In this document: positions 3,112-38,665 of the stretch, piece after piece
Layout: each line of letters opens with the position of its first letter
How positions within the stretch are numbered: the stretch's first letter is position 1
Virus record (IMG/VR): IMGVR_UViG_3300009509_000009
Location: 15,666-79,665 of that record
Source: a virus
Length of the DNA stretch: 64,000 bases
Strand: one strand, 5' to 3'
Notes under the pieces: model-generated
Told to the model about the DNA's origin: nothing
The model's input: only the letters and a program-made list of their open reading frames with translations
Database searches by the model: none
Made by a program: the position numbers and the translations under genes

Positions 3112-4125
3112 GTGGCTGAACGTCAGCATGAGGATGATCTGTATCAGTTGCTTCGAGGCGTGAACAAGAATGAAGTCGCGCCTCGGGGCACTGATGCGGT
3201 TCAGCCTGCCGTCGCCTCTTATGACACCCTCATCGAGCCTCCCATAAAGGATGCTACGCCCGAGGAGGATGAGCCGACCAACGAGCCGACGGATAAAGTG
3301 CCAGAAGAGGACGGTCAGCCGCAGTCCCCAGAGGGTGGAGCCGATTACAAGCCGTTCACCCTTCGATCAGTATTCGCTCATCACGACTCTCACCCACTCC
3401 TGATGGACATGCTTCTCCTAGAGAAGTATGGACTCGACTGGTTGACGTGGGAGCCGGAGACGCTCTGGGATGCGATCTCGGAGGACTTCAAGACCACGGT
3501 AAGCACCAACAATGCCAGCATGATCCAAGCGGCGAAGACGTGCCACCTGGTCGAGACGCCTTGGGTAGCGTGGGAGATCTTCGTACCAGTCTGCCAGGCG
3601 TTCAACAACAACATTCCAAACTTCAGGACGTTCTTCAAACCTACGATTCCGCAGACGATGTTTGCGGTCGAGGTGATGAACTCTATCGACGACCGCAAGT
3701 TCAGCGAGGAGCTGGAGCGGTTCGTTGCTGCAGTCTTCCTGGACGCCAGCGTCTTCTACCTGCCGCCTCCAGTCGACTTCGCCCAGAAGATGGCGATGCA
3801 GATCGAGTATCGCTGTTCCAGATGTGGTAGAGTTGATCTGGATGACGACAACCTCATGTGCGATTCCTGCGGCGCTCCTCAATCGGCGCTCAAGACGATT
3901 CCGAAGTGGGACCCCGAGCCTACGAAGAAGCGTTATGAGCACATACTGTCGCAAGGAGAGGAGCATGATGTGCTGCAGGAGAAGGGGGTTGACGTCCAGG
4001 TTGCCAAGCTGCTGGTCGCCAGGAACTACCTGGATTACAGGAAGAAGCAGCTGGCGGATCAACTAAAGGCGGTCGAGGATGAGCGACTACAACTACGATC
4101 TGGCTCTCGTAGACGGCCAGCTTGA
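3112..4125 (+). CDS. Hypothetical protein with Zn ribbon
   Basis: Probable GTG start at 3112 inside ORF 2734..4125; CSRCG...CDSCG. Confidence 0.75.
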   Translation: MAERQHEDDLYQLLRGVNKNEVAPRGTDAVQPAVASYDTLIEPPIKDATPEEDEPTNEPTDKVPEEDGQPQSPEGGADYKPFTLRSVFAHHDSHPLLMDMLLLEKYGLDWLTWEPETLWDAISEDFKTTVSTNNASMIQAAKTCHLVETPWVAWEIFVPVCQAFNNNIPNFRTFFKPTIPQTMFAVEVMNSIDDRKFSEELERFVAAVFLDASVFYLPPPVDFAQKMAMQIEYRCSRCGRVDLDDDNLMCDSCGAPQSALKTIPKWDPEPTKKRYEHILSQGEEHDVLQEKGVDVQVAKLLVARNYLDYRKKQLADQLKAVEDERLQLRSGSRRRPA

Positions 4126-5050
4126 CGAGTTTCAAAAGATCGCCTTCGTCGGTAGGGTGGCTCGAGCTCTTGGCCGTGGCACGGCTATGAGAGGTGCTGC
4201 CATAGGCGGAGGCATCGGTGCGTTGAGTGGCGGCGCTCTCGGAGCAGCTTCAGCTGACCCTTCACAGGGAACAATGGGCAGGGTTCAGGGAGCTATATCA
4301 GGAGCTCTGTCTGGCGGCATCCTTGGTGCTGGCACCGGTACCGTAGCGACGAAGGCTGGTAGGCAGTGGATAGGACGTGCTGGTAAGGCGCAGGTGCACG
4401 GGCTGACTGGCTGGGTGCCCGGTTCAAGGAAAGCTGGCAAGGGATTCTTCGGACAGCACATGAATCCAGCAGAGAGGGCCAAGGCCCTCGAGGGCCTTGG
4501 CATCACCGCTCCGAAGGGACGACTGTCTCACGGTCAGGCGCTCGGAAAGATTCAGCAGGGCAGGCTTACTGGGAAGCTCCCATCGGGGATGCAGCAGCAG
4601 CTCGCCGATCTCTCCGTGGCACGTCACATGGCTCAGCAACAGCAGGTGAGCAAAGGACTCACGTCCGTACCAGGATTCGTCAAAGGAATGGTGAAGGACC
4701 CGACTGGCACAGCAAAGACTGGCCTCCTCGCCGCCGGCGGACTTGGTACAGCGATGACTCTTGGCTTCAGTGCTCCTGAGGCTATCCAGGCGGCCAAGGA
4801 AAGGGACATCAAGAGGCTCGGAGGATCTCTGGCGGAGACTGGATTCTACGCAATGGGCGGTGGTATCCCCATGCTTGGGTCCATGGCACTCGGAAGTGGT
4901 GTCAGACGTCTGGGGCAGGCTCCTGGCGCTCTGGTGGAGAAGGTGATGGGCCAAGGACCTCAGCCGGGTCAGCCGCAACGAACGATGGGTAGCGGCGCCC
5001 AGAGGGCTGCGGCTCAGAGGGCTGTTCACCACATGACTAGGGAGGGCTGA
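4079..5050 (+). CDS. Gly-zipper protein with DEFQKIA leader (candidate capsid cargo/ejection protein)
   Basis: 'LDEFQKIAF' followed by GAAIGGGIGALSGGALGA-type segments. Confidence 0.7.
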   Translation: MSDYNYDLALVDGQLDEFQKIAFVGRVARALGRGTAMRGAAIGGGIGALSGGALGAASADPSQGTMGRVQGAISGALSGGILGAGTGTVATKAGRQWIGRAGKAQVHGLTGWVPGSRKAGKGFFGQHMNPAERAKALEGLGITAPKGRLSHGQALGKIQQGRLTGKLPSGMQQQLADLSVARHMAQQQQVSKGLTSVPGFVKGMVKDPTGTAKTGLLAAGGLGTAMTLGFSAPEAIQAAKERDIKRLGGSLAETGFYAMGGGIPMLGSMALGSGVRRLGQAPGALVEKVMGQGPQPGQPQRTMGSGAQRAAAQRAVHHMTREG

Positions 5051-5055
5051 GTCTG

Positions 5056-6939
5056 ATGTTTGATTTCAACAGAGCACCAGCTACTCGCCCAACCATGGCC
5101 CCCGGCCGTATTCAGGGTGGCCAACGGCTCCAAGGTGTGAACTACCCGAGCCCGTTCTTCGATGTCGCTCATACGTACCTGCCAACAACCATCAAGCAGA
5201 TGTTTCGGTGGTGCAGGTATTACTACCTCACCAATCCGTTGATCGCCGCAACCGTCAACAAGATGGCGGAGTACCCGATCACTGACATCTTGGTGGACGA
5301 GGACAACAAGGGGCTGAAGCAGAAGTGGGAGGACTTCTTCGAGGACACTCTTCAGCTACGCCCATTCCTGATCGAGGCTGGTCTGTTCTACATGACCTAC
5401 GGCAATGCCATGATCTCGATCAGCCATCCGTTCATCAAGTGGCTCACATGCAAGCATTGTGGCCACAAAGTCCAGGCCAGGAAAGCTCGGTTCCAGTTCA
5501 GAGAAACGAAGTTCTTCCTGCACTGTGATCACTGCGGCACGAGCGGTGACGCCGTAGCCTTTGACCAGTACCTCAGGACTCCTCATAAGCTGAAGCTCAT
5601 CCTGTGGAATCCCGAGGACATCGAGATCAGATACAACGAGCTGACTGGGGAGACCACGTACTACTACACAGTCCCCCAGAAAACCAAGAACGAGATCACT
5701 CTGGGCAAGCGAGATGTGGTAACCACAGTCCCGCAGGTGTTCATCGACTCGGTGAAGTCCCGCAAGGCTGTAATCATTTCGCCTGACAACATCTTCCATC
5801 TCAGACGCCCGTCCATACTGACTGGCAAGAGAGATAGAGGATGGGGTATCCCGATCATCCTTCCTGTTCTGAAGGACGTCTTCTACCTGCAGCTGATGAA
5901 GAAGGCCCAGGAGGCTATCCTACTCGAGCGCATCGTTCCTCTCACAGTGCTGTTCCCACAGCCTGGATCTGGTACATCAGACCCATTCCAGATGGTGAAT
6001 CTGCAGGACTGGAAGAACCAGGTCGTCAAGGAGATCCAGCGTTGGAGGATTGATAGGAACTACATTCCGGTCATGCCGCTGCCACTGGGCAACCAGGTTG
6101 TCGGTGGGGACGGTAGAGCTCTGCTACTCAGCCAAGAGATCAAGATCTGGAGTGATCACATCATCTCTGGAATGGGAGTGCCCAACGAGTTTGTCTTTGG
6201 TGGTCTGCAGTGGTCTGGGTCGAACGTGTCTCTCCGGATGCTCGAGAACCAGTTCATGCGGTACGTGCAGGACCTTGGAAGATTCCTCCGTATCTTCCTG
6301 GTGCCCAAGATCGCTGCGTACCTCGACTGGCCCAAGGTCAACGTCAGGTTCAAGCCGTTCAAGATGGCTGATGATCTACAGCGCAAGGCTCTGTACATGC
6401 AGCTCAACCAAGCTGGTAAGCTCAGCGATACGACACTGCTCAACGACTGCGACTTCAATCCCGAGGATGAGGACGAGCTCATGGCCACTGAGACGGAGCG
6501 TCGTCTCGAGGCTGTCAAGAAGCAACAGCTCGCTGAGGCTGAGATCCAGGGAGAGATGGGTGTCATCCAAGCCAGGTACCAAGCCAAGGCTCAGCAAGTC
6601 ATTGCTGAGGAGCAGGAGCAGATGGCCCGAGGCACGCAGGGCACAGCTCAGGGTGAGCCTGGTGCGGAGATGGGAGGAGGCCCGGCTACAGCTCCGGAGC
6701 AGCAACCCGCTCCTCCTTCAGGAGCTCCACCTCCTCAGATGATGCCTCAGATCATTCAGAGGATGAGAGCCATGAGCCCGGACGCCCAGGTAGGTCTTCT
6801 GAAACAGATCGCTCAGAGGAATCCGGAGATGGCTATGCAGATCGCCGAGGCACTCCAGCCAGGCGAAGAGATGACGCGCGGTGAGCCGCTGCCCGAGACT
6901 CTTCCTCCGAGGAGAGACGCGGCCAGCGCTCTGATATAG
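5056..6939 (+). CDS. Portal protein with Zn-ribbon insertion
   Basis: 627 aa; portal-like N-terminus (CRYYYLTNPLIAATVNKMAEYPI), 'NIFHLRR...RGWGIP', 'IISGMGVP..F.FGG', Q/P-rich tail; structural context. Confidence 0.75.
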   Translation: MFDFNRAPATRPTMAPGRIQGGQRLQGVNYPSPFFDVAHTYLPTTIKQMFRWCRYYYLTNPLIAATVNKMAEYPITDILVDEDNKGLKQKWEDFFEDTLQLRPFLIEAGLFYMTYGNAMISISHPFIKWLTCKHCGHKVQARKARFQFRETKFFLHCDHCGTSGDAVAFDQYLRTPHKLKLILWNPEDIEIRYNELTGETTYYYTVPQKTKNEITLGKRDVVTTVPQVFIDSVKSRKAVIISPDNIFHLRRPSILTGKRDRGWGIPIILPVLKDVFYLQLMKKAQEAILLERIVPLTVLFPQPGSGTSDPFQMVNLQDWKNQVVKEIQRWRIDRNYIPVMPLPLGNQVVGGDGRALLLSQEIKIWSDHIISGMGVPNEFVFGGLQWSGSNVSLRMLENQFMRYVQDLGRFLRIFLVPKIAAYLDWPKVNVRFKPFKMADDLQRKALYMQLNQAGKLSDTTLLNDCDFNPEDEDELMATETERRLEAVKKQQLAEAEIQGEMGVIQARYQAKAQQVIAEEQEQMARGTQGTAQGEPGAEMGGGPATAPEQQPAPPSGAPPPQMMPQIIQRMRAMSPDAQVGLLKQIAQRNPEMAMQIAEALQPGEEMTRGEPLPETLPPRRDAASALI

Positions 6940-6941
6940 GA

Positions 6942-6981
6942 CTAAAAGAAATCGCCGGACCCGTTGGAACGAGCCCGGCGA
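6942..6981 (-). terminator. Intrinsic terminator-like hairpin
   Basis: TCGCCGG...CCGGCGA stem followed on the minus strand by TTTCTTTTAG. Confidence 0.7.
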
Positions 6982-7008
6982 CGTGGGGTTTCCTTGGCTA
7001 CTCTTTAC

Positions 7009-7365: not shown

Positions 7366-10300
7366 ATGGCCCGGCTAGACCCTAGAGAGGGGTTCGAGCT
7401 CCTCAAAGACAGGGTGACTACCGAGGTGAAGGCTGCGTTCCCCCAGGAGGGGAACGATCACATTCTCGACATCGAGAATGTGGAGATCCAGGACGAGCTG
7501 GACCCCGAGGATATTGAGGGTCAGAAGAAAGCGAAGCTCGGTGGATCAACCTGGGGAGTCCCCGTGAAAGCAGAGTTCGTCTTGAAGGACAAGGCGAGCG
7601 GCAAGGTCATCAACCGAAGTAAGATCAAGGTGGCGACGATCCCGAAGCATACTCGTCGTCATTCCTTCATAGTCGGTGGATCTGAGTACCAGGTGGACAA
7701 CCAGTGGCGGTTGAAGCCCGGTATCTACACACGTGTCGCGCAGAACGGTCAGCTCGAGTCACGGTTCAACTTCCAGGGCAAGATGAACCTCGATATGATC
7801 TTCGACCCCAAGAGCAGGAAGTTTCAGCTCAAGCACGGTGGGTCGAAGCCGCCGCTCTATCCAATACTCAAGGCGGTTGGCGTTGACGACGACGCGCTAC
7901 AGCAGGCGTGGGGCAAAGAGATCCTCAACGCCAACAAGACAACGCCGAATGGAAAGGCGCTGAACGTAGAGAAGCTAGCGATCGGTTTCGCCAAGAGACT
8001 CGATCCAAACAAAGACGTCAAGAACTTCGACGACGCTGGAGATGTCATTCGTGAATACATGGGTACGGCGGAGCTCAGACCCGACGTGACCAAGCTCACG
8101 CTAGGCAAGGAGTTCAATACCATCACGCCTGAAGCACTCACGAGGACGTCGGGTAGACTTCTTGGTGTAGCTAGAGGCGACAAGCCAGACGTGCGGGATG
8201 CTCTGCAGTTCAAAGATCTTCTCAGCACGGAGGACTTCATCGCTGAGCGTCTTCAGCAAAGCGCCAAGATCATCAAGCGCAGGATACAGAACAACATAGA
8301 TCGAAGGACCACCGTTCGTGAGATCGTGGGGCCAGACATTTTCGATCGACCCGTCAAAGAGTTCTTCTCGAAGACGTCGCTGGCGAATACACCTCAGCAG
8401 GTCAATCCACTCGAGATGTTGTCCGGCCAGCAGCGTACCACTATCACTGGAGAGGGTGGAGTCAAGAGCGCACACAAGATCCAAGAGGACGCAAAGCTAG
8501 TAGATCCGTCACACTTCGGTGTGCTCGACCCACTACACACTCCGGAGTCCGACAAGACAGGAGTGACACTACACCTTGCCATGAGCGCCGTGAAGAAGGG
8601 CAACAAGGCCTTCGTCCCACTGCACAATGTCAAGACTGGAAAGGTAGAGTATCTCGATCCAGAGACGGTCAATGAGAAGATCGTGGCAATGCCGGATGAG
8701 GGTAGGTGGGACAAGGGTAAGTGGGTGCCCAACGCGAAGAAGGTCAAGGCGAGTACGCTGGGCAATGAGATTCGAGACGTCGACTCCTCCAAGGTCCAGT
8801 ACGTCATGAAGAATCCTGGTCAGATGTTCTCTCTCGCCACCAACATGGTTCCGTTCCTCTCCTGCGACTCCCCGAATAGATCATCCATGGCTGGGAAGCA
8901 GATGGAGCAGGCGATCTCGCTGAAGTATAGAGAGCCGCCTCTAGTTCAGGTAGCGCGAGGAGACGGGACCAAGAAGACCTTCGACGAGTTCGTCGGGCGA
9001 TATGCCTCTCATGAATCCCCAGTTGATGGGAAGGTGACCAACATCACTGACACGTTCATGGAGGTCAAGTCGGGGCGCAAGACACACAAGGTCCAGCTGT
9101 ACAAGGACTATCCCCTCAATGACAAGAAGGGTCTTCTCCAGAGTACCCCTACGGTGAAGGTAGGGGACAAGGTGATGAAAGGGCAGACTGTAGCCGATAC
9201 CAACTTCACAAAGGGCGGAGTCTACGCGCCTGGAGTGAACCTCAACATCGGGTACACGCCGTGGAAGGGCTACAACTTCGAGGACGGTGTGGTGATCTCT
9301 GAGTCTGCTGCGAAGAAGCTGACTTCAGAGCACATGCACAAGAAGACCCTGTCCACAAAGGAGGCGAAAGCTCCCGGCAAGGAAGTCTTCATGTCCCACT
9401 TTGCCAGCAGTCTGGACAAGGAGCAGGCAGAGAAGCTGGACAGAGACGGCATCATCAAGCCGGGCATGAGGATCAGAAAGGGCGACACTCTCATCGCTGC
9501 AGTGGCCGACGCCCCGCCCACTACTGAGAATCAGATGTTCAAGAATCTCCACCGATCATTGGTGCAGCCATTCGACAACCGATCTATCACCTGGGAAGAA
9601 GACCAGGAGGGTGAAGTCGTCAATGTCACCAAGAAGGGGAAGAAGATCCAGGTTCACGTCAAGACTGAAGAGCCGATGACTGTTGGCGACAAGATGGTTG
9701 GGCGCCACGGCAATAAGGGAATCGTCACCAAGATCTTGCCAGACAACGAGATGCCGTCGACCAAAGATGGCAAGCCCCTCGAGGTGCTGATGAATCCAAT
9801 CGGTATTGCTGGTCGGATGAACATCGGTCAGGTGCTTGAGACAGCAGCCTCTAAGGTAGCTGAGAAGCGCGGACGCCCGCTCAAGATCACAAACTTTGGA
9901 GTCAGTGATAGCCGCACGGAGATCGAGAATCTGCTGAAGCGGCATGGAGTATCAGATCGAGAGACCATTGTAGATCCAAAAGACGGGACGGAGATAGAGG
10001 GCATCCAGGTTGGAAAGCAGTACATCCTCAAGCTCCAACACCAAGTAGATAAGAAGATGTCTGCTCGAGACAGAGCTGGCTACGATCGTAACTTGATCCC
10101 AAAGGGCGGCGGGAAGCACGGTGCTCAGGCGCTAGGAGCTCTCGGCATGTACGCCATGTTAGCTCACGGGGCTAAGCACAACATCCGTGAGATGCAGACC
10201 TACAAGTCTGATAAGGCGCAGAACGACGATCTTTGGAGCGCCATTCAGACTGGTGAGCCACTGCCTCCTCCGAAGACTACCTTCGGGTATCAGAAGTTCG

Positions 10301-13300
10301 AGTCCTACCTCAAGGGAATGGGCGTCGACACGCAGAAGGATGGGAACTCCCTGAATCTCATACCACTGACTGACAAGCAGGTGGAGGAGATGTCTTCTGG
10401 GGAACTCAAGGATGCGGGGCGGGCTGTTCGAGGGTACAAGATTGGATCGAAGCGCAGAGGCTCAATAGATCCTGAGAAGTCTGGTCTATTCGATCCGCAG
10501 ATCACCGGGGGCTTGGATGGCACCAGGTGGTCTCACATCAACCTAGCAGAGCCAGTGCCAAATCCACTCTTCGAGAAAGCAGTCCGTAGTCTCACCGGGA
10601 TTCGTGGACCTCAGTTCAATCGTCTGATCGAAGGCAAGGACGGCGTCGATAAAGACGGAAAGATAGTTCCTCCGGGTACTCAGGGAGCTCTCTACGGTCC
10701 TCAGTCCATTGGTCTCATGCTGGATAAGGTAGACATCAACAAGGACCTGCAGGCCGCGCAAGCGAAGCTCCCAACCATCAAGAATCGTCAGCCACTGAAT
10801 GAGACACGCCGAAAGATCAAGTACCTGCAGGCCCTGCAGAAGGTTGGCCTGTCCCCTCGTGAAGCGTACATGACCTCGAAGGTTCCAGTTCTTCCTCCAG
10901 CGATGAGGCCTCTATCAATGCTCGAGGACGGAGCTCTGCAGTTCGATGATCTCAACCAGCTCTACAAGGACGTGGCCCTACTTGATCAGCAGATCAAGGA
11001 GATGCCCAGCTTCGCGCCAGACAGCGCGAAGGCAGAGGCTAGGGCTGACGTATACGATCGGATGAAGGCCCTAACTGGTCTTGGTGGCTCCCTCAAGGGA
11101 AGGTACAAGGGGATAGCCGACATCATAGCCGGAGACAATCCGAAAAGTGGTTACGCCCAGGACAAGCTGATCAAGAGGAAGATGGACCTGTCCATGAGGT
11201 CCACTATCGTGCCCGAGCCTTCATTGTCCTTGGACGAAGTAGCCATTCCTCGCAAGGCAGCTATGGAGATCTACAAGCCCTTCATCGTCAGGGAGCTCCG
11301 TATGTCCACGGGTTCCGGACCTCTCACTGCCAAGGAGATGGTGGAGGCCAATCACCCGGCTGCTCGGGAGGCCCTGAACCGAGTGGTTGAGGAGCGACCC
11401 CTCCTCATGAAGCGCGACCCAGTACTCCACAAGTACGGCATTCAGGCCTTCAAGCCTAAGATCGTAGAGGGCAAGGCCATCAAGATACACCCCCTTGTGT
11501 GCTCCGGATTCAACGCAGACTTCGACGGGGACACCATGAGCGCCACAGTACCCATCACCGAGGAGGCTGTGGATGAAGCCCGAAAGATGTTTCCGTCGAA
11601 GATGCTGTTCAATCCAGCCACCAAGGGAGTCATGTACACGCCGGCCCATGAAGCTCAGGTTGGTCTCTACATGATGACGGACGTAAAGAAGAAAACGAAC
11701 TACCAGTTCAAAGATCAAGCCGCCCTCGAGCGCGCAGTGAAAGAGAAGAAGCTGGGTCCTAATGATGCTGCCAAAGTAGGCGGGAACTTCACAACACTAG
11801 ATCGGTTGAGGCTCAACGCCACCCTGCCAACACAACTGCAGGGAGGAAAGCTGCTCACTGATCTAGACTACCGCTTTACCAAGAAGGACCAGGGTCAGTT
11901 CTTCAAGCAGATGGCAGAGACGGACGAGAAGGGTTTCCCGATCAACATAGATAAGATGAAGGACGTGGGAAACCTGAAGGTCACTCATGGAGGGTTCAGC
12001 TTCGGGCTCAGTGACTTCAAAGTACACAAGGACATTCGAGATCCGATCATGCGTGAGGCGGATAGGAGAGCGTCAGCTCTGGATTTGTCCAAGAAGAACG
12101 ACATGAACAAGTTCGTCGACATCTATGAAGGTGCGATGACCAAGATGAAGGATCGGCTGGATGTCAGAGTCAAGGAGCTCAGCACAAAGAACTCTTTGGC
12201 AATGCTCGAGACGGCAGCTGGGATCAAGGGTAAAGGGTACGCCCAGCTCACCACAGCTCCAGGTCTGTTCGTTGACGCAAAGGGAGAGGTAGTCGCCAGT
12301 CCAGTGAGGAAGTCGTACTCTGAGGGTCTCTCCGCTTCTGACTACTGGGCGTCAGTGAGCGGTGGACGCAAAGGAATCATCCAGCGAACGCAGTCTACAG
12401 CCAAGCCAGGCTATCTCACCAAGCTCATGATGAACTCGGTGATGGACACCTTGGTGCAGGAGGACGACTGCGGTACCGATCGTGGGGTCAGTCTCAACAT
12501 AGATGAACCAGACCTTATCGGTAGGTACACTACGGCCCCAATAAAGATCGGAAGCACGACGTTCAAGCCAGGAACTCTGGTCACTGCTGACATCGTCAAC
12601 AAGGCCAAGAATGCTAAGGTCACCAGGATCGTTAGCCGATCTCCGATGCGTTGCAATCACGCACACGGCGTATGCGCGAAGTGCATGGGGCTCAACGAGA
12701 GAGGAGAGCACCACGGGCTCGGAACCAACATCGGCGTGCTGGCTGCCCAGGCTATCGGAGAGCGCGGAACCCAGCTCGCTATGAAGGCGTTCCACTCAGG
12801 CGGGGTGTACGAGGGTAAAGCCGCGCAGGAGAGGTCGATCACTGGTGGTGGGTTCGAGCGCGCCGTCACTCTGCTCTCCATGCCGAAGCAAGTGAAGGGA
12901 TCTGCCAAGCTGGCTATCGCTTCTGGTAAGGTAGAGGCGGTGAAGAAAGATCCAGCGGGTGGGTTCGATGTGAAGATAGGCGGCGTCAAGCACTACATTC
13001 CTGCTGATCGTACACCGCTACCCGATCTGAAGAAGGGTAAGGCTTTCCGAAAAGGTGATCCTCTGACTAAGGGTCCTATCAATCCGAGGGAGCTGCTTCC
13101 TCTTACCAACATGAACAAGGTCCAGGGATACCTGGCTTCGGAGCTACACAGTCTCTATGCCCCAGAAGGAATCAGACGTAGAAACTCCGAGGTCCTCGTC
13201 AGGTCACTATCCAACGTCACCAAGGTCGAGGACTCTGGAGATAGCTCGTCGTGGATCAGGGGAGACTTTGCTCCGACTGCTGTAGTCAACGAGTGGAATC

Positions 13301-13548
13301 GTAAGAACGCCAAGCGCGGGCTGAAACCTGTACAGCACACGCCAGTTCTTCGTGGGGTCAAGACTATCCCCGAAGATGTGCAGACAGATTGGCTAGCCCG
13401 ATTGAATCATGAGAACATCAGGTCTACCCTAGTAGAAGCGGCACAACAGGGTTGGGCGAGTAATCTTCACGGTGATCACCCAATCCCGCCGATGATCGTG
13501 GGTAAGGAGTTCGGCAAGGGAACAAAGGATAAGCCCTGGTCGTACTAA
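7366..13548 (+). CDS. rpoBC: DNA-directed RNA polymerase, fused beta-beta' single chain (2060 aa)
   Basis: Beta motifs: HTPESDKTG, GYNFEDGVVIS, GDKMVGRHGNKG, RMNIGQVLE, YILKLQHQVDKK. Beta' motifs: PVLPPAMRP, LHKYGIQAF, FNADFDGD, DDCGT, AQAIGERGTQLAMKAFHSGG. Confidence 0.97.
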   Translation: MARLDPREGFELLKDRVTTEVKAAFPQEGNDHILDIENVEIQDELDPEDIEGQKKAKLGGSTWGVPVKAEFVLKDKASGKVINRSKIKVATIPKHTRRHSFIVGGSEYQVDNQWRLKPGIYTRVAQNGQLESRFNFQGKMNLDMIFDPKSRKFQLKHGGSKPPLYPILKAVGVDDDALQQAWGKEILNANKTTPNGKALNVEKLAIGFAKRLDPNKDVKNFDDAGDVIREYMGTAELRPDVTKLTLGKEFNTITPEALTRTSGRLLGVARGDKPDVRDALQFKDLLSTEDFIAERLQQSAKIIKRRIQNNIDRRTTVREIVGPDIFDRPVKEFFSKTSLANTPQQVNPLEMLSGQQRTTITGEGGVKSAHKIQEDAKLVDPSHFGVLDPLHTPESDKTGVTLHLAMSAVKKGNKAFVPLHNVKTGKVEYLDPETVNEKIVAMPDEGRWDKGKWVPNAKKVKASTLGNEIRDVDSSKVQYVMKNPGQMFSLATNMVPFLSCDSPNRSSMAGKQMEQAISLKYREPPLVQVARGDGTKKTFDEFVGRYASHESPVDGKVTNITDTFMEVKSGRKTHKVQLYKDYPLNDKKGLLQSTPTVKVGDKVMKGQTVADTNFTKGGVYAPGVNLNIGYTPWKGYNFEDGVVISESAAKKLTSEHMHKKTLSTKEAKAPGKEVFMSHFASSLDKEQAEKLDRDGIIKPGMRIRKGDTLIAAVADAPPTTENQMFKNLHRSLVQPFDNRSITWEEDQEGEVVNVTKKGKKIQVHVKTEEPMTVGDKMVGRHGNKGIVTKILPDNEMPSTKDGKPLEVLMNPIGIAGRMNIGQVLETAASKVAEKRGRPLKITNFGVSDSRTEIENLLKRHGVSDRETIVDPKDGTEIEGIQVGKQYILKLQHQVDKKMSARDRAGYDRNLIPKGGGKHGAQALGALGMYAMLAHGAKHNIREMQTYKSDKAQNDDLWSAIQTGEPLPPPKTTFGYQKFESYLKGMGVDTQKDGNSLNLIPLTDKQVEEMSSGELKDAGRAVRGYKIGSKRRGSIDPEKSGLFDPQITGGLDGTRWSHINLAEPVPNPLFEKAVRSLTGIRGPQFNRLIEGKDGVDKDGKIVPPGTQGALYGPQSIGLMLDKVDINKDLQAAQAKLPTIKNRQPLNETRRKIKYLQALQKVGLSPREAYMTSKVPVLPPAMRPLSMLEDGALQFDDLNQLYKDVALLDQQIKEMPSFAPDSAKAEARADVYDRMKALTGLGGSLKGRYKGIADIIAGDNPKSGYAQDKLIKRKMDLSMRSTIVPEPSLSLDEVAIPRKAAMEIYKPFIVRELRMSTGSGPLTAKEMVEANHPAAREALNRVVEERPLLMKRDPVLHKYGIQAFKPKIVEGKAIKIHPLVCSGFNADFDGDTMSATVPITEEAVDEARKMFPSKMLFNPATKGVMYTPAHEAQVGLYMMTDVKKKTNYQFKDQAALERAVKEKKLGPNDAAKVGGNFTTLDRLRLNATLPTQLQGGKLLTDLDYRFTKKDQGQFFKQMAETDEKGFPINIDKMKDVGNLKVTHGGFSFGLSDFKVHKDIRDPIMREADRRASALDLSKKNDMNKFVDIYEGAMTKMKDRLDVRVKELSTKNSLAMLETAAGIKGKGYAQLTTAPGLFVDAKGEVVASPVRKSYSEGLSASDYWASVSGGRKGIIQRTQSTAKPGYLTKLMMNSVMDTLVQEDDCGTDRGVSLNIDEPDLIGRYTTAPIKIGSTTFKPGTLVTADIVNKAKNAKVTRIVSRSPMRCNHAHGVCAKCMGLNERGEHHGLGTNIGVLAAQAIGERGTQLAMKAFHSGGVYEGKAAQERSITGGGFERAVTLLSMPKQVKGSAKLAIASGKVEAVKKDPAGGFDVKIGGVKHYIPADRTPLPDLKKGKAFRKGDPLTKGPINPRELLPLTNMNKVQGYLASELHSLYAPEGIRRRNSEVLVRSLSNVTKVEDSGDSSSWIRGDFAPTAVVNEWNRKNAKRGLKPVQHTPVLRGVKTIPEDVQTDWLARLNHENIRSTLVEAAQQGWASNLHGDHPIPPMIVGKEFGKGTKDKPWSY

Positions 13549-13558: not shown

Positions 13559-13951
13559 ATGGATGATCAACTGTACAAGGAAGCCATGTACTCTGGATTC
13601 TTCGACGAGCTCGGACTGCTCGAGAAGCAACAGATGTTCGAGAAGCAGGCTGCGGGTCTTGGTACCTTAGTCAAGGGCTTCCGTCAGCTGGGCAAGGATC
13701 CGACGAAGGCCCTCGGTGGTGTTCGTAGAGCCTGGGAGGTCGGTGTTCGTAGAGGAGCTGGTCTGGGTAGAGGACAGGCTGGGCCTCTCCAGGGAGGCGT
13801 GGCGAACAGACTCCGCCAGGCGTGGGGTGGCGTGAAGAACGTCGCCAAGACACCGGCGGGCCAAGCTATTGGAGCTACGGCGCTGGGCGCCGGAGCGCTG
13901 GGCGCCGGGGCCGTGGGAACTGGGTACGCTGCTGGCCGTGCTCAGGGTTAG
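13559..13951 (+). CDS. Small Gly-rich protein with FFDEL...EKQAA leader and C-terminal hydrophobic Gly zipper
   Basis: 130 aa; AAGGAG RBS. Confidence 0.75.
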   Translation: MDDQLYKEAMYSGFFDELGLLEKQQMFEKQAAGLGTLVKGFRQLGKDPTKALGGVRRAWEVGVRRGAGLGRGQAGPLQGGVANRLRQAWGGVKNVAKTPAGQAIGATALGAGALGAGAVGTGYAAGRAQG

Positions 13952-24274: not shown

Positions 24275-24627
24275 GTCTGATCGCTGCTGACCACCTGGTT
24301 CGTCAGGAACTCCAGAAGGCTGCCACGGCCGCTGATGTCGGCCGTGGCATCATTGGTGCCGTCAAAGGTACTGGTCGTGTGATCCAGAAGGGATTCTCAG
24401 AGGCTGGTCGTCAGGCCGCCCAAGAGCTTGGTGGTGGAGCGGGCGGCAAGCTGGTTGGTGGAGCTATCACTGCAGCTCCGGCTCTCGCCGCTGGTGGAGC
24501 GGCTGCTTACGGAATCAATGAGATGGCCGGCGATCCGCTTGGTCGTTACGTGGCTCGGAAGCGTCAGCAGCTCGCCAACAGAATCCAGGGCTCTCAGGTC
24601 TACCAGCAGGGAGGAGTGTACTACTGA
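24271..24627 (+). CDS. Small Gly-zipper protein with QELQKAA leader
   Basis: 118 aa, ATGA coupling. Confidence 0.75.
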   Translation: MSLIAADHLVRQELQKAATAADVGRGIIGAVKGTGRVIQKGFSEAGRQAAQELGGGAGGKLVGGAITAAPALAAGGAAAYGINEMAGDPLGRYVARKRQQLANRIQGSQVYQQGGVYY

Positions 24628-25079
24628 TGGGCGCAATCAGAGACTTCCTCGAGCACGAGGGTATGATCGAAAAAACAGCTGCGGCTCCTCTGTCCTGGAG
24701 AGAAGCCGCACACAAAGCTGGGGTCATGGCTGCTGGTACAGCTCTCACCTACGGAGTCATGGAGGCTATCAGCGCCGCCAAGAATGCTGTCAACAGGACT
24801 CGTGGCTACCGAGCCATGATCGACACCAACCCAGAGCTCAAGGAGATGGATGCCGAGGGCGTCAAGGCCATGTACAACATGATGCACAAGACCGCCCCGA
24901 CTCTTGCTCAGAACCCCTACATAGCTGGGGGCTTCGTCAAGCGAATCGAGCACGGCAAGAAGTGGATGGATCCGCGCATTGTGTCCGACTTGGCTGAGAC
25001 CGAGGCGAAGATGCAGCGCACTGGCTACGGACCACTGACCGGCTTCCCATTCGAGGTCGGCAAGGCCATGGCTGGCTGA
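24627..25079 (+). CDS. Small protein with EKTAA leader and hydrophobic helix
   Basis: 150 aa, GGAGG RBS. Confidence 0.75.
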   Translation: MGAIRDFLEHEGMIEKTAAAPLSWREAAHKAGVMAAGTALTYGVMEAISAAKNAVNRTRGYRAMIDTNPELKEMDAEGVKAMYNMMHKTAPTLAQNPYIAGGFVKRIEHGKKWMDPRIVSDLAETEAKMQRTGYGPLTGFPFEVGKAMAG

Positions 25080-25089: not shown

Positions 25090-27099
25090 ATGATCATAAA
25101 GCAGTGCCAGTTTAGTGGGCGGGATGATAGTGGAGTGCACGTGCACCTCCTCCATCCTGGCTACGACAACGAGCACCTGGTCAAGGTAGCTGCGGCGTCG
25201 CCTCCCCAGCTTGAGCGAGTCCTCAAGCTGGTGCGGTCAATGCCCAAGACAAACAGTTCTCTTCCAGTTCTGGTAAGCGCCATGGGGGCTGGAGAGTACT
25301 GGGGGTCGAACTCCAACGGAGACTACTTCCCAGAGTCCTCATTGATCCACACTCCACCAAACTGGTTGGGTCTGTCTCTGGACCTGCAACGGCAATTGGG
25401 AGCTAGGTGGGAGTGGGGATACCCGACGTTCTACAACGCCCACGCCTTCCAGCACCACGTGAACAAGGATCCAGCTCGAGCATTCGGCGATGTCGTCTAC
25501 GCGATGTGGGATCCACAGATGAAGCGAGTGCTTCTGGTCATCAACATCGACCGGGAGAAGGCGCGAGTCATGGGTGCCATCAGCGTGGTGGACAAGATCG
25601 AGAACGGGGAGTTCCCTGATGTCTCGATGGGCTGCAAGGTGCCCTACGATGTCTGCACCATTTGCGCCGACTGGTCGCGCATCACACAGAACCCAAAGAA
25701 GGACCTCGCTGAGCACAGGAAGCGTCCCATTCGTGGGCTCTCCACCACGCGCCACGAGTACTGTCAGCATCTGCAGGCAGAGCTGAACAAGATCTATCCT
25801 GACGGCCGTAAGGTCGCCATGATCAATCTGCACCCCAAGTTCTTTGATCTTAGCTTCGTATTCATCGGAGCCGACAAGACCTCGAAGGTGATGGCGAAGC
25901 TGGCTGGCGCTCAGATGTGTCCCATCCGCTCTAACGCCAGGATGTGCAAGAAGGGATGTTTCGACTGTGCTATTCCCTCGAGCCATGTGTACGAGGTATG
26001 GTCAAGAGAGAAGACAGCCGAAAGGGCTGAGAGATCTGGTGCTGTGGCAGTCTCTATGAGTAAAGAGGAACCAACTGCATATGATCGTATGCGCGCTGAA
26101 GCTACCTCCAGAGGTCTAACTCCTCATCAGCACGCTATGAAGATGGGCCGTAAGGAGTGGCTGACGCGCATAAATAAGGCGCGGAAAGAGGATGCAGCTT
26201 CGGGGAGACCCTGGCTCGGTGATAAAAAGATCGAGAAGAAGGCGGTCACCTTTCCAGGTATGGAAAGGGAGCTCCGAGACGAGAGGGATGAGATGGGCCC
26301 ACTCGAGGAGCTGTTTGGGATCGATAAGCAATCTGCTGCAGAGATCGCTAAGAAAGCGGAGATCATCAAGCAGATAAGATCTAACTTCTCGAAGAGCCTG
26401 CCAGGAATGACAGCTGAAGAACCCAACATTCCTAACGACGTTCTCAACGCCATGTCTCAATGTCCCAGAGAAGCTCTCGGTACGGCTGGCAGTATGGGAA
26501 TCGTTCTCAAGCCCAGAGAGTTTCAGAGGACCATAATCATAGCTCGAGGCAGGCCTGACTTGGCTGACCAGCTCGACGATGCTGGAGCTTGCTTCAGTCC
26601 AGGAGCTCCTCCATCGAGGGACTTCAGCATCTCAGATAAGATCATTCCGCGCCTACTACAGGCGCTGGCACCATTGATAGGAGAACGGAGCTGTTTCGGC
26701 CCGCCCGTTCACCGAAGAGTCATACGGATGACGATCATCAAGAGGCCGGAGTCACCGCTTGAGCTTGAGGGTAATCCGCTTCTAGACAAGCTGAGCGCAG
26801 ATTATTCTGCGTACCGACAGCAGCTTCTGTACAAGCAGGCAGCTCTAGTTGACCAGCTCATCCACGAGCACCCTTGGGTAACGTCCGCTATCCTCGGACC
26901 CCAAATTGAAGGATCGTTTGGAGGGGGTCTTGTCAAGGCGGGGGGTAGTGTGGTGGAATCAATGCTTGGAATGCTCTCGATCGACTATCTAAACCAGGCA
27001 CACCTTCCGAAACCGATCTCGGAGTTCGTTTCGGATCATTGTGACCTGGCCGGATTGAAGTCGGCAGGGGAGCTCGCTTCGTGCGGTAGGGTAGCGTAG
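25090..27099 (+). CDS. Putative prohead (capsid maturation) protease with Zn-binding insert and C-terminal extension
   Basis: 'NSNGDYF...HAFQHHVNKDP..AFGDV...DVSMGCKVPYDVCTIC...FFDLSFVFIGAD' pattern consistent with HK97/assemblin-fold Ser-His proteases; upstream of the capsid genes. Confidence 0.65.
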   Translation: MIIKQCQFSGRDDSGVHVHLLHPGYDNEHLVKVAAASPPQLERVLKLVRSMPKTNSSLPVLVSAMGAGEYWGSNSNGDYFPESSLIHTPPNWLGLSLDLQRQLGARWEWGYPTFYNAHAFQHHVNKDPARAFGDVVYAMWDPQMKRVLLVINIDREKARVMGAISVVDKIENGEFPDVSMGCKVPYDVCTICADWSRITQNPKKDLAEHRKRPIRGLSTTRHEYCQHLQAELNKIYPDGRKVAMINLHPKFFDLSFVFIGADKTSKVMAKLAGAQMCPIRSNARMCKKGCFDCAIPSSHVYEVWSREKTAERAERSGAVAVSMSKEEPTAYDRMRAEATSRGLTPHQHAMKMGRKEWLTRINKARKEDAASGRPWLGDKKIEKKAVTFPGMERELRDERDEMGPLEELFGIDKQSAAEIAKKAEIIKQIRSNFSKSLPGMTAEEPNIPNDVLNAMSQCPREALGTAGSMGIVLKPREFQRTIIIARGRPDLADQLDDAGACFSPGAPPSRDFSISDKIIPRLLQALAPLIGERSCFGPPVHRRVIRMTIIKRPESPLELEGNPLLDKLSADYSAYRQQLLYKQAALVDQLIHEHPWVTSAILGPQIEGSFGGGLVKAGGSVVESMLGMLSIDYLNQAHLPKPISEFVSDHCDLAGLKSAGELASCGRVA

Positions 27100-28074: not shown

Positions 28075-28371
28075 ATGTCGGGCCTGGGTGTGAGAACGGT
28101 GGAAGCTATGATGGACGAGCTACAGAAGATCGCTAAGTTTTCTGTTTCAGCTCCGTCCATCAAGGCTCCACCTGCACCTGGAGGAGATGGATCGGTGCTG
28201 AAGGCAACTCCAGCGTCGCCTGTCTCCCCGAAAGCGATCTCTGCCAAGGCTCTGAAGTCCACGAACCTAACGAAGACGAACTACACCAACGTCTCCACTG
28301 AGGTGCCAGCACCACAGATCGGTCAGACGATGGAACAGAAGGCTTTGCAGCCTCCTGTAGTTCGGTCATAG
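28075..28371 (+). CDS. Small Pro/Ser/Thr-rich protein with MDELQKIA leader
   Basis: 98 aa. Confidence 0.65.
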   Translation: MSGLGVRTVEAMMDELQKIAKFSVSAPSIKAPPAPGGDGSVLKATPASPVSPKAISAKALKSTNLTKTNYTNVSTEVPAPQIGQTMEQKALQPPVVRS

Positions 28372-30428: not shown

Positions 30429-31553
30429 ATGAGTGTTCCCGCAAGAGTGTTGAACGAGCTCTTCTCCCAGAAACTCTCCACAGGAGAGGGCAAGGAGAAG
30501 ATCGCTGAGTACGGTGGCGCTTACATCCGAGACAGGCTGCGTGAGGTTTCGTACGCTCGCCAGATCCTGCCGCCGGAGAACGTCACCAGAACCGACTGCC
30601 AACGGTCAGTCAACCACGACACCCTCGTGAAGGTCATCGACGTGGAGCCGGAGAGCCGGGCCATGGCGATCACCTTCCGTGGTCAGCCCACCGCGCGGTT
30701 CATCCGTGCGCCCCGTGCCGAGGTTCCCTTCTTCACGATCTCCTCGGAGAAATTCGAGAAGACCGAGCAGGAGCTCCTCGCGTACGAGATGCCCATCACC
30801 AAGGTCATCGAGGACAACACGGTGAAGGACATCCAAGAGGTGGAGGACCGTGAGTTCACGATCCACATCGAGGCTGCCGTCCAGGCCCTTCAGGCCGAGG
30901 CGAACAGCGCCGCCACCTCTCCCGAGCTGTCCTCGAACACCATCGGGACCACCGTCGAGTTCTCGGTCACGAAGGGTGAGATCGCTCGCAACTTCACCGG
31001 GACCCCCGACGCCACGGTCCATCCGCTTCAGAGGCCGGACATCGTTCGTCTCTGCAAGCTCCTCGATGGGAATCGGCTCCGCTCGGAGCGGATCCTCATG
31101 ACCGAGGTGGAGTTCGACGACATCAACCAGTGGACCGTCGAAGACTTCGGCGACAAGATGCAGTCCGAGACCACCGTCGACGGGTACAAGTACTCGACGC
31201 TGTTGGGCAAGGCGTTCGTCCGCACGATCAAGACGGACATCCTCCGCCCCGGCAACGTGTACGTGTTCACTCGTCCCGAGTTCTTCGGGAAGTTCTACAT
31301 CCTCAACCAGGTGAAGTTCTACATCGACAAGATTGCGAACCTGATCACCTGGCAGTCCTGGGAAGACATCGCCATGTCGGTGATCAACATCGCTTCGGTG
31401 CGGAAGCTCGAGCTCTACTCGGCCGACGCCTCGAATGCCGACGCCCAGGGCCTCAGGGATGCGAACTTCATCCCGGTGATCGAGGAGGACCTCGGCGCGA
31501 TCAACAACCGCGTCGATAAGGGATGGGTGTTCCCGCAGGTGCAGAGCTTCTAG
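30429..31553 (+). CDS. Major capsid protein (HK97 fold)
   Basis: 374 aa; highly biased codons; 'IRDRLREVSYARQILPP', 'KDIQEVEDREF'; followed by a terminator; N-terminal EKIA. Confidence 0.75.
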   Translation: MSVPARVLNELFSQKLSTGEGKEKIAEYGGAYIRDRLREVSYARQILPPENVTRTDCQRSVNHDTLVKVIDVEPESRAMAITFRGQPTARFIRAPRAEVPFFTISSEKFEKTEQELLAYEMPITKVIEDNTVKDIQEVEDREFTIHIEAAVQALQAEANSAATSPELSSNTIGTTVEFSVTKGEIARNFTGTPDATVHPLQRPDIVRLCKLLDGNRLRSERILMTEVEFDDINQWTVEDFGDKMQSETTVDGYKYSTLLGKAFVRTIKTDILRPGNVYVFTRPEFFGKFYILNQVKFYIDKIANLITWQSWEDIAMSVINIASVRKLELYSADASNADAQGLRDANFIPVIEEDLGAINNRVDKGWVFPQVQSF

Positions 31554-35971: not shown

Positions 35972-35993
35972 GCCAGGAAGATAGGAGATCAAG

Positions 35994-37304: not shown

Positions 37305-37310
37305 GGATTG

Positions 37311-38192
37311 ATGATCGAAGTCACCAACCTGAAAGTGTACTCCTTGAGTAAGGATCATCTGGACCTTACTTGGGAGATCGCTGATACCAACCTCGATCCC
37401 CACGATTTCACGTTCACGGTCGAGAGGAGTGAGGCTCAGTATGGCCCGTTTGATCAGATCAGTGAGCCGTTCAGCGACAAGTACAATTTTAGGGACGTGA
37501 TCGTCAATCTCATGAGTCGGTGGAGGACATACTTCTACCGCATTCGTGTCACTCGCAAGCTCGACAGCAAAGAAGCGGTGTCGAGCTCGGCTAGCCTTGG
37601 AGCTAAGCCGGACTTGATCGCCTGGGAGGTTCGTCGACAAGAAACCATTCTGTTCCGTGAGCACATCGGGAGGAGATGTTGGACCTTCCCGGCGAAGACT
37701 TTTGGCCAGCGCTGTAGATGCTTCGATAAGGTTACTGGACAGCGGTTGGTGTCTCAGTGTGAGACCTGTTACGACACCAGCTATGTCGGCGGCTACCTTG
37801 ATCCTGTTGAGATGTACATCCAATTCGATCCAAGTCCAAAGCATATCGAGCCTGAGCAGCTTCAGGAAACTGAGCAGCAGAACACTACGGCTCGTACGCT
37901 GTACTTTCCAGTGCTGAAACCAAGGGATATAATCGTTGAGAGTGAGAACCGGAGGTGGAGAATTGAGCGCGTTTCTACCACCCGTAGGATGCAAGCAGTC
38001 CTCCACCAAGAGCTAGTTCTCCATGAGATTCCAGGGACTGACATTGAGTTCAAGATCCCGATCAACATCGACGATCTAAAGAACTTCGAGGCCAGTCCAG
38101 AACGCGAGTTCACCAATCCGCAGGACCTCGAGGTCCACGACGACGCGAACTGGTTGACCCGCACTTTGAGGTCGCACGGGTACGAGGGCTGA
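37311..38192 (+). CDS. Putative neck/head-closure protein (FN3-like N-terminus, Zn-binding)
   Basis: 'LTWE...FTVERSE..GPF', 'RCRC...CETCYDTSYVGGY', 'RDIIVE..NRRWRI'. Confidence 0.6.
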   Translation: MIEVTNLKVYSLSKDHLDLTWEIADTNLDPHDFTFTVERSEAQYGPFDQISEPFSDKYNFRDVIVNLMSRWRTYFYRIRVTRKLDSKEAVSSSASLGAKPDLIAWEVRRQETILFREHIGRRCWTFPAKTFGQRCRCFDKVTGQRLVSQCETCYDTSYVGGYLDPVEMYIQFDPSPKHIEPEQLQETEQQNTTARTLYFPVLKPRDIIVESENRRWRIERVSTTRRMQAVLHQELVLHEIPGTDIEFKIPINIDDLKNFEASPEREFTNPQDLEVHDDANWLTRTLRSHGYEG

Positions 38193-38665
38193 TGTACTAC
38201 CTGTTCTCATCGTTCAGCGACGAGCTGATCAAGATAGCCCAACAGGAGCCTGGGTTTCCTGATCCTCGTATGGTGGAGATCGCTCAGCGCCAGCAGAGTA
38301 CCCCAAAGCAGAAGTACCTCAACAAAGAGGTTCTGAAACAGTTCGGAAAGAACACTCTGGCTATTGGAGCTGGTACTGCCGCTGGTGAGGGCCTGGCCAC
38401 ACTCACGAATATGGGTTTGGAGGCCGGGGCGAAGCGTCTCGGTCATAAGCTCCACCCCGCAGTACCTCACGTGGTTCGAGGAGTAACCATCCCAGTCATG
38501 GGTGCTGGTTCCCTGATGGCCTACAGGGCAATGAGGCAGAGAGCTGATGAGAAGCTGGAGGAGGCACGTCAGCGCTCCGCAGCTGAGAAGGGTGAGAAGC
38601 CCACAGACGTGAGCCTCGAAGACTGGGAGAAGATCAATCCTGGTTATGGTGGAGGTGCTTTGTGA
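38192..38665 (+). CDS. Small protein with FSDELIKIA leader and Gly-rich hydrophobic helices
   Basis: 157 aa. Confidence 0.75.
   Translation: MYYLFSSFSDELIKIAQQEPGFPDPRMVEIAQRQQSTPKQKYLNKEVLKQFGKNTLAIGAGTAAGEGLATLTNMGLEAGAKRLGHKLHPAVPHVVRGVTIPVMGAGSLMAYRAMRQRADEKLEEARQRSAAEKGEKPTDVSLEDWEKINPGYGGGAL

Follow-up and report, generated by a model that had tools for sequence, protein, structure and literature searches.

A Lys-x-Ala motif in the head-module proteins of an uncultured phage and a portable N-terminal leader that may act as a removable capsid-targeting signal

Why would several small, otherwise dissimilar proteins encoded among the structural genes of one phage carry a common motif close to their N termini? 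The question is raised by a 64,000-nucleotide (nt) stretch of DNA, referred to here as the window (positions 15,666 to 79,665 of the IMG/VR record IMGVR_UViG_3300009509_000009), that lies within a single 79.7-kb contig (G000, 79,665 bp) of an uncultured soil or sediment phage. A sequence-only reading of the window had proposed that six small Gly-rich proteins share an acidic leader of the form DEL-x-K-I-A that directs unrelated payloads into the phage head. The precedent is the capsid-targeting sequence (CTS) of phage T4, a class of N-terminal propeptides of 10 to 20 amino acids (aa) that end at a cut site, are carried by IPI-III and Alt, and are removed by the protease gp21 (Mullaney and Black 1996, as cited in PMC5694885). 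The analysis described here favors, with a probability of roughly 0.55, the interpretation that the leader, like the T4 CTS, is a removable propeptide and that it is cut at its terminal Lys-x-Ala (K-x-A) motif by a gp21-fold protease encoded at positions 25090 to 27099 of the window. Throughout, genes and their products are designated by the first nucleotide of the gene.

All seven motif strings on which the proposal was based, including the internal copy in the 27181 protein, were found at the positions reported for them, in open reading frames (ORFs) on the + strand. These ORFs can be regarded as real genes because their codon-usage scores are positive and they have syntenic orthologs in IMG/VR relatives. 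The comparative material comprised loci L001 to L160, from more than 200 IMG/VR contigs encoding a major head protein 70 to 79% identical to that of the window; a blastn search with the head region against 50,697 phage records returned no nucleotide matches. When all gapped tripeptides within the N-terminal 50 residues of 93 predicted proteins were enumerated without bias, KIA, E..K.A, F.K.A, K.A.A, L.K.A, and EK.A occupied the first six ranks of overrepresentation. A core pattern (hydrophobic residue, 0 to 1 residue, E/Q/D/..., K, one of ITVAQLM, A) was then scanned. This pattern matched 45 sites in 35 structural proteins, compared to 7.2 ± 2.6 in 1,000 shuffles, and a site fell within the first 50 aa of 14 structural proteins (0.96 ± 0.96 in shuffles), whereas the 58 other proteins contained 5 sites, at the chance level of 4.4; the pattern was tuned on the data, and the weight of these counts rests on the contrast between modules and on the unbiased enumeration. 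The residue following the motif Ala is biased to A/S/G. The motif is retained in orthologs that have otherwise diverged past BLAST recognition, and conservation of the core extends to two cultured phages, Arash, a phage of Salmonella, and G, a phage of Bacillus. Two candidate sites were counted as chance occurrences, namely, EVKAAF at the N terminus of the RNA polymerase, where orthologs read EAISSNF or EAVAESF, and EMKASF in ORF 15134, which is not retained in orthologs.

Logos derived from the orthologs were used to separate classes of the motif, and two tiers emerged. The core consists of a hydrophobic residue at position −2, E/Q at −1, K, T/V/I, A, and then A/S/G, and only this core is present in the protease, the scaffold-like proteins, and the 1125, 24271, and 24627 families. 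The extended leader, approximately A-F-F-D-E-L-x-K-I-A/G, is further specified at positions −7 to −2, where internal sites carry no such information, and was observed in the 28075, 38192, and 13559 families and, in a weaker form, in the 4079 family. To avoid circularity, a position-specific scoring matrix (PSSM) trained solely on the 28075-family leaders of the relatives was used to scan the whole proteome of the window genome. The best non-self matches were the 38192 protein (27.9 bits, residue 6), the 13559 protein (13.9 bits, residue 12), and the 4079 protein (9.4 bits, residue 12), and in none of 1,000 shuffled proteomes did as many as three proteins reach 9 bits. The two-tier logos and this cross-family test distinguish the extended leader from the core. 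Thus, the shared leader originally attributed to all six small proteins is upheld for 28075, 38192, and 13559, is weaker in 4079, and has to be withdrawn for 24271 and 24627, which carry the core only. In the whole Arash proteome, the best match to the extended leader scored 10.9 bits, against a shuffle median of 8.8, and the leader was judged not to be present there; because it is undetected in Arash, the extended leader is best regarded as an elaboration within the window's own clade.

In the six small window proteins, the leaders are 16 to 32 aa long, with the motif Lys at aa 13 to 30 and at a similar position in the orthologs. Their net charge ranges from −4 to 0, so that the acidic character ascribed to them applies at one end of the range, the other being neutral. 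The parts that follow the leader are indeed unrelated: homology was undetected in hhalign comparisons of the six mature-part profiles, with probabilities of ≤3% in all 15 pairs. What these parts have in common is a strongly basic composition (isoelectric point [pI], 9.4 to 12.0), and five of the six contain Gly/Ala-rich hydrophobic stretches of the glycine-zipper kind. The orthologs of 28075, the mature part of which has a pI of 10.1, read A-F-F-D/E-E-L-x-K-I/V-A/G. The leader of 13559, a gene located directly 3′ of the RNA polymerase gene, reads FFDELGLLEK and then FEKQAA, and is followed by a mature part with a pI of 12.0. The 4079 gene lies upstream of the portal-like gene; its product has a mature pI of 11.8, and one of its orthologs shows a weak, subthreshold Pfam match to "Glycine zipper 2TM" (19.6 bits versus a cutoff of 24.2). 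The orthologs of 24271 read ...R/L-x-K-x-A-G, and the 24627 family has the consensus N-P-V-E-E-F-L...E-K-x-A (AIRDFLE...MIEKTAA in the window copy). In an AlphaFold (AF2) model of 24627, a leader helix at aa 4 to 9 is followed by a low-confidence, probably flexible stretch at aa 10 to 23 that contains the K-x-A site and then by a confident helical body; the mature-part fold matched no solved structure and only one uncharacterized viral protein. Pfam and PHROGs searches with the six small proteins, the scaffold-like protein, and the 25090 protein yielded nothing informative.

Beyond the window, the leader proved to be as modular as had been supposed. Among 11,592 ORFs in the 160 related loci, 94 N-terminal matches to the leader scored ≥14 bits, all but two of them (92) on the structural-gene strand. 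Clustered by mature part with BLAST, the 94 ORFs form up to 27 clusters, an upper bound given that the fast-evolving family at the 38192 position was split into about a dozen singletons; after allowing for this splitting, at least 10 clearly different kinds of cargo remain. One of these is a 488-aa SNF2 helicase (Helicase_C, 6.5e-17; SNF2-rel_dom, 4e-11), in which the 15-aa leader M-L-W-E-A-F-A-D-E-L-I-K-I-S-A stands immediately before a catalytic core starting at residue 18. This helicase is 39% identical (E = 4e-106) to Arash gp217, with the alignment beginning at residue 19 of the helicase and residue 5 of gp217, a protein represented abundantly, by 38 unique peptides, in purified Arash virions (PMC10585845). 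A K-x-A/S/G sequence is found in a fixed register, 5 to 9 residues before a conserved H-Q, in 32 of 50 distinct helicase orthologs. Because proteins of the Arash-like branch start directly at the core, and the leader-bearing orthologs keep this fixed register, the leader is an add-on to a conserved helicase. Most of the clade has the leader-bearing form, but in the window's own 79.7-kb contig, a tblastn search found no SNF2 helicase. Docking as a common function would account for a strongly constrained tag on so many unrelated proteins more readily than cleavage by itself. Other leader-bearing cargoes without an assigned function are encoded in relatives at L028:4518-5372, L079:18290-18883, L079:11630-12280, L069:7829-9055, and L124:2050-3003; among them are a protein that matches DUF5661 at a borderline level (E = 8e-6, slightly short of the Pfam cutoff) and a 197-aa protein with a K-Y-P-I-H-D-S-S-H-A-R-A-A-L segment.

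If the K-x-A motif is a cut site, a matching protease is to be expected, and a candidate is encoded in the head module itself. The N-terminal domain of the 25090 protein is predicted from its modeled structure to be a prohead protease of the gp21 fold, found here without prior annotation. In this conserved domain of ∼260 residues, H122/H123 and S179 are invariant, S179 being part of a P-D-V-S-M-G sequence, and the spacing is T4-like. With the AF2 model (predicted local distance difference test score, 75), the top three Foldseek hits were all T4 gp21 (5jbl; probability, 0.90), and VIA-align against 5jbl_A gave a Z score of 8.7 with a root mean square deviation of 3.0 Å over 139 of 165 aligned positions; the herpesvirus proteases scored lower, with Z values of 5.3, 3.7, and 2.8 for varicella-zoster virus (VZV), human cytomegalovirus (HCMV), and Kaposi's sarcoma-associated herpesvirus (KSHV), respectively. 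A direct hhalign comparison with T4 gp21 produced one 18-column segment that is not significant, although it pairs S179 with S140, the catalytic serine of gp21. A profile of the family (20-member alignment) had no protease matches among PDB sequences and Pfam, and the relation is one of fold only. The triad may be Ser-His-Asp or, as in herpesvirus assemblin, Ser-His-His: H209 is invariant within the window's clade, and a matching His was not seen by eye in phage G gp19, for which no formal alignment was made. The protease domain is 37.5% identical to that of Arash gp222, which is annotated merely as a "structural protein" (PMC10585845), and 25% identical to that of gp19 of phage G, a homolog annotated as a head maturation protease (PMC12484599). 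In a database of 1.84 billion representatives, the matches to the family at E ≤ 1e-10 form 2,352 clusters (50% identity). In three long orthologs, inteins (Hint plus a LAGLIDADG homing endonuclease) are inserted right after D-V-S-M-G, which would be a typical intein position in an essential active site, and in another ortholog, an intein is located near residue 76. Many of 150 database representatives show 2 to 4 matched stretches and lengths of 900 to 1,700 aa, which suggests that inteins are common in the family.

The motif and the protease are linked, above all, by the positions of the K-x-A sites in the protease itself. The 25090 protein has such sites at aa 32 to 34 (LVKVAAA) and at the domain end, aa 270 to 272 (AKLAG). 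Among 150 diverse representatives examined, 81 have a recognizable anchor, and 78 of these have a K-x-A 12 to 45 aa upstream of the catalytic core (chance, 0.31). The consensus of the upstream site is D-x-x-F-E-K-T/I-A-S/A, and that of the domain end is G-A-D-K-T-A-K-x-M-x-K-I-A-S/E/G; the corresponding boundary sites are LTKQAAA and VLEKVAN in Arash gp222 and LVKTAAK and ILEKVAS in phage G gp19. Sites at the protease's own boundaries fit K-x-A as a cut site, and the gp21-type proteases phiKZ gp175 and SPN3US gp245 are known to autocleave their C termini (PMC5694885). The conservation of the sites would be better explained by a phage-encoded protease than by a host protease because the hosts span Salmonella to Bacillus.

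The same motif occurs in multiple copies, 3 to 8 per protein, in the scaffold-like neighbors of the protease, namely, 27181, 23363, 28382, and 29544 in the window and gp220, gp223, and gp225 in Arash, as their breakdown into small peptides would predict. In 27181, the internal copy reads WNELEAIQKAAA; the orthologs of this protein retain DLEKTAAAEL...KLAEE, and Arash gp223, at the matching position, has five sites. In 29544, DRIEKIAR is kept in relatives, and a site falls within the N-terminal 60 residues of 42 of 44 distinct orthologs. The single detectable ortholog of 35994 has MKKTASS. A possible maturation site is present in the major head protein, GKEKIAEY at aa 21 to 28 (K-I-A at 24 to 26), where the motif is found in 44 of 46 distinct orthologs and the preceding residues are conserved as well; the Arash major capsid protein has LVKEAGA at nearly the same place. 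The idea that carriers are confined to small Gly-rich proteins must therefore be abandoned: the 4079 product has 323 aa, that of 28075 is Pro/Ala/Ser rich, and many larger head-module proteins contain the motif. The earlier interpretation as a whole is borne out in part, the motif being a general one of the head module with several copies in scaffold-like proteins.

In Arash, the density of the motif is 7.8 per 1,000 aa in the head-core cluster, compared to roughly 0.4 to 2 in most other 10-kb bins. Proteins gp220 to gp225 and the RNA polymerase subunits have been detected in Arash virions, the separate β and β′ subunits among the most abundant proteins (PMC10585845). One of the six small window proteins, 24627, has a homolog among them, gp221 (hhalign, 96.8%; E = 2e-10); comparison of Arash gp218 to gp226 with the 4079, 13559, 24271, 28075, and 38192 families by hhalign found no homology. 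Outside the Arash head core (OQ632216), a 289-aa protein (174466-175335, +) contains four core sites, LTKVAG, LEKAAAM, IEKVASQ, and FTKLAE, and a 155-aa protein (172528-172995, −) starts with M-M-E-K-V-A-S.

Herpesvirus assemblin, a member of the same fold superfamily, has cut sites, termed R and M, of the form (V/L/I)-x-A↓S (the arrow marks the scissile bond). Given the P3-x-P1 pattern of the superfamily (L-x-E, A-x-E, and V-x-A↓S), the scissile bond of K-x-A most likely follows the Ala. Under the favored interpretation, the acidic or neutral leader, about 15 to 30 residues long and probably helical, would dock its protein to the core of the assembling prohead, and would terminate in the protease recognition site, hydrophobic-x-(E/Q)-K-x-A followed by A/S/G. 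Upon closure of the shell, the protease would release its own domain by cutting the K-x-A sites on either side of it and would chop the multisite scaffold-like proteins 27181, 23363, 28382, and 29544. Trimming of the leaders would leave strongly basic mature polypeptides, mostly of the glycine-zipper kind, inside the head, from which they would presumably exit with the DNA at infection.

Several observations weigh against this interpretation. The gp21-type proteases characterized so far all cut after Glu, at L/I-x-E or A/S/G-x-E (PMC5694885), and the motif enriched here is K-x-A rather than x-x-E, so that a K-x-A rule would be a departure from theirs; a search of the literature available turned up no relevant account of a phage prohead protease with an Ala-type rule. 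The similarity of the 25090 protease to gp21 is below significance at the sequence level, and the catalytic candidates are limited to H122/H123 and S179. We infer both the cleavage at K-x-A and the targeting role. The virion preparation of Arash held 116 proteins and is of uncertain purity (PMC10585845). Furthermore, Arash lacks the extended leader, yet its helicase is present in virions, and the RNA polymerase, located in the virion module, has no conserved leader; thus, the leader is neither universal nor the sole route into the head. Finally, conservation over ∼10 residues exceeds the usual subsite requirement of a protease and could reflect an exosite rather than targeting.

The alternative that survives best, although it is considered rather unlikely, is that K-x-A and its flank are a substrate of the prohead protease and nothing else, that the propeptides serve otherwise, for example, by preventing basic, membrane-active cargo from acting in the producing cell, and that head entry depends on other contacts. 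The acidity of leaders attached to very basic, hydrophobic mature parts would suit such a role, the core is equally common at internal sites of scaffold-like proteins and at protease boundaries, and Arash packages its helicase without a leader. However, an inhibitory 15-aa tag would be of no obvious use to a helicase, in which the fixed register is nevertheless widely kept, and docking would predict both the conservation at −7 to −2, which sets the leader apart from internal sites, and the spread of the leader over up to 27 unrelated cargo clusters.

Conversely, the motif might serve docking alone, as a helix-forming short linear motif through which proteins of the head interior are held to the shell, portal, or scaffold, and which is retained on the mature proteins. 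This is a still less probable account: the sites flank the protease domain throughout the family, as in the autoprocessing phiKZ gp175 and SPN3US gp245, scaffold-like proteins contain 4 to 8 copies, as is typical of degradation to small peptides, the residue after Ala is biased to A/S/G, and in the model of 24627, the site is placed in a low-confidence, probably flexible linker. Nonetheless, the conservation of ∼10 residues with amphipathic spacing would be consistent with an uncleaved anchor, as would the major head protein, the N terminus of which is conserved on both sides of K-I-A.

The Gly/Ala-rich hydrophobic segments in five of the six small proteins, and the weak glycine-zipper match of the 4079 ortholog, raise the further alternative that these are membrane proteins of the infected cell, involved in lysis, superinfection exclusion, or a similar process, with a membrane-targeting or regulatory helix at the N terminus. 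Such a function is highly improbable in view of the occurrence of the motif on scaffold-like proteins, the protease, and a soluble helicase, the location of the genes within the head module on the structural strand, the presence of the gp221 homolog and the Gly-rich gp224 in Arash virions, and the lack of a signal-peptide-like hydrophobic core ahead of the motif. Chance, compositional bias, or descent of the N termini by gene duplication, for which the abundance of K, A, E, and L in the genome and the two unconserved candidate sites could be cited, was tested and rejected given the shuffle tests, the chance-level counts in nonstructural genes, the retention of the motif in orthologs diverged beyond BLAST detection, and the lack of homology among mature parts.

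The coordinates of the genes under discussion are collected in Table 1. The structural module occupies the + strand from 1125 to 45779, and the fused RNA polymerase gene lies inside it, between the portal-like gene and the gp5-like spike. In the head region, the gene order is 25090 (protease), 27181 (scaffold-like), 28075, 28382, 29544, 29946, and 30429 (major head protein), which is the same as the order of gp222 to gp226 in Arash. The closest relative (L001) is on an 88-kb contig, and the contigs of some relatives are 185 to 195 kb long; because relatives' contigs reach 195 kb, the window genome may be incomplete, with further leader-bearing genes beyond the contig. Within the listed ORF 2734-4125, a probable gene of ∼337 aa occupies 3112-4125 (+), with a GTG start at 3112; its product has a C-terminal zinc ribbon (PF13248; E = 9e-5, below the cutoff), and its orthologs in L084 and L088 begin with R-F-I-E-R-L-Q-K-V-A-G, whereas the window copy has no clear motif. 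Simple gene calling wrongly favored the antisense ORF 3418-4062 over this gene. Between the terminase and the head module, a 191-aa ORF at 21876-22451 (−) has a Lys/Glu-rich start with I-S-K-I-A-E-K-T-A-K, followed by a hydrophobic segment, and is the sole motif-like N terminus on the opposite strand.

Table 1. Positions of the leader-bearing, motif-bearing, and landmark genes (window positions unless a locus is given)
Feature	Position	Strand	Motif sites, matches, or remarks
Protein of 98 aa, Pro/Ala/Ser rich, basic; extended leader at aa 1-20 (nt 28075-28134)	28075..28371	+	MMDELQKIAK, aa 12-21
Protein of 157 aa with Gly/Ala-rich hydrophobic segment; extended leader at aa 1-16 (nt 38192-38239)	38192..38665	+	FSDELIKIAQ, aa 8-17
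Protein of 130 aa, very basic, Gly/Ala rich; leader at aa 1-32 (nt 13559-13654)	13559..13951	+	FFDELGLLEKQQMFEKQAA, aa 14-32
Protein of 323 aa, basic, glycine-zipper segments; weaker leader at aa 1-22 (nt 4079-4144)	4079..5050	+	LDEFQKIAF, aa 15-23
Protein of 118 aa, basic, Gly/Ala rich; core only	24271..24627	+	RQELQKAA, aa 11-18 (QELQKAA, aa 12-18)
Protein of 150 aa with its own leader flavor	24627..25079	+	DFLEHEGMIEKTAA, aa 6-19
Protein of 669 aa; N-terminal domain at aa ∼18-260 (nt ∼25141-25869), predicted prohead protease of T4 gp21/herpesvirus assemblin fold	25090..27099	+	
Intein-interrupted protease orthologs	L024:3810-6620, L073:3807-6629, L035:435-3557, L055:2165-5125		
Acidic scaffold-like protein of 294 aa	27181..28065	+	Six core sites: LEKMA, LEKLA, YEKIAAA, IQKAAA, QKTAS (twice)
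Multisite protein of 303 aa	23363..24274	+	4 core sites; homolog of Arash virion protein gp220 (8 sites), hhalign 92%
Multisite protein of 383 aa	28382..29533	+	MVKAA, MQKIAE, VEKLAS, LQKVAS
Coiled-coil-like protein of 122 aa	29544..29912	+	Three sites: MDKIAA, REKVAS, VEKIAS
Protein of 406 aa with conserved N-terminal site at aa ∼30	1125..2345	+	PEFIKQAG in window; PDFIKTAS in relatives
Protein of 436 aa	35994..37304	+	N-terminal HEKTASA and KEKTAF; two C-terminal sites
Protein of 295 aa	44892..45779	+	4 core sites, aa 37-90: LGKVAAA, LQKMAAS, LEKLAR, LEKTAL
Major head protein	30429..31553	+	phrog_2522, 8e-13
SNF2 helicase in relatives, beside portal-like gene	L156:11989-13455 and L172-L226		
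Portal-like protein	5056..6939	+	phrog_64, 1.5e-6; context, without motif
Fused β/β′ RNA polymerase, 2,060 aa, single ORF	7366..13548	+	Pfam Rpb2_6, 9e-61; Rpb1_2, 2e-27; Rpb1_5, 5e-21
gp5-like spike	13962-15134	+	
Large terminase	19918-21711	+	
Sheath-like protein	39485-42937	+	

A broader picture can be proposed tentatively, at somewhat less than even odds: that in a very large, mostly uncultured lineage, to which Arash and megaphage G belong and whose proteases form at least 2,300 clusters at 50% identity, a gp21-fold protease has moved from the Glu rule to Lys-x-Ala↓(Ala/Ser), and that one subclade has turned the site into a portable encapsidation tag of ∼10 residues, AFFDELxKIA, on cargo ranging from glycine-zipper, membrane-active peptides to a SNF2 helicase, for programmable protein delivery alongside a virion RNA polymerase. 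The favored interpretation, if correct, would name the head protease, previously unannotated, of an abundant environmental phage lineage and would predict a new cleavage rule for the gp21/assemblin superfamily, testable in cultured Arash or G. It would also supply a sequence rule for finding capsid-carried, probably injected proteins, including enzymes and candidate membrane-channel formers, and an example of a cut site extended into a longer, clade-specific address label. Much as has been done with the T4 CTS, the short tag might then be adapted to bring foreign proteins into capsids of this kind.

Among known systems, the T4 CTS is the closest in concept. In both cases, a short N-terminal tag is common to unrelated basic proteins, which are head internal in T4 and predicted to be so here, and the tag ends at a cut site, a putative one here, of a gp21-fold protease whose gene neighbors those of the scaffold and the major head protein, with multiple copies of the motif in the scaffold. 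The T4 CTS has the sequence MKTYQEFIAE. The system described here differs in its K-x-A motif (L/I-x-E in T4), in its longer leader (∼AFFDELxKIA), and in that much of its cargo is of the glycine-zipper kind, and its targeting and cleavage are predictions.

In phiKZ, 201phi2-1, and SPN3US, likewise, many head or ejection proteins carry one short motif, and processing has been demonstrated (PMC5694885, PMC10052503); among them, SPN3US gp47 is a processed head protein with a transmembrane helix. The C-terminal autocleavage of the phiKZ and SPN3US proteases has a counterpart in the release-type site at the end of the 25090 domain, and a virion RNA polymerase, a feature of the giant phages of the phiKZ group, has been seen in the present lineage in Arash. 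However, the proteases of those phages cut after Glu, in an A/S/G-x-E motif, and remove propeptides that often exceed 100 aa, whereas the motif here is based on Lys and Ala, and the protease is fused to a C-terminal region of ∼370 aa. Such a long C-terminal region is also found in herpesvirus assemblin, with which the 25090 protein further shares the fold superfamily, a release-type site at the domain end, and an inferred P1 Ala that is often followed by Ser; the residue two positions before the Ala is Lys rather than aliphatic, and membership in the herpesvirus family is not claimed. The nearest cultured counterparts are Arash and phage G, with a homologous protease domain, K-x-A at both of its boundaries, and multisite neighbors, and neither the Arash paper (PMC10585845) nor the phage G paper (PMC12484599) describes the motif or a cleavage rule. 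Thus, the concept is known from the T4 CTS and from processing in phiKZ and SPN3US, and the novelty lies in the lineage, in the Lys-x-Ala motif, and in the extended leader with its cargo.

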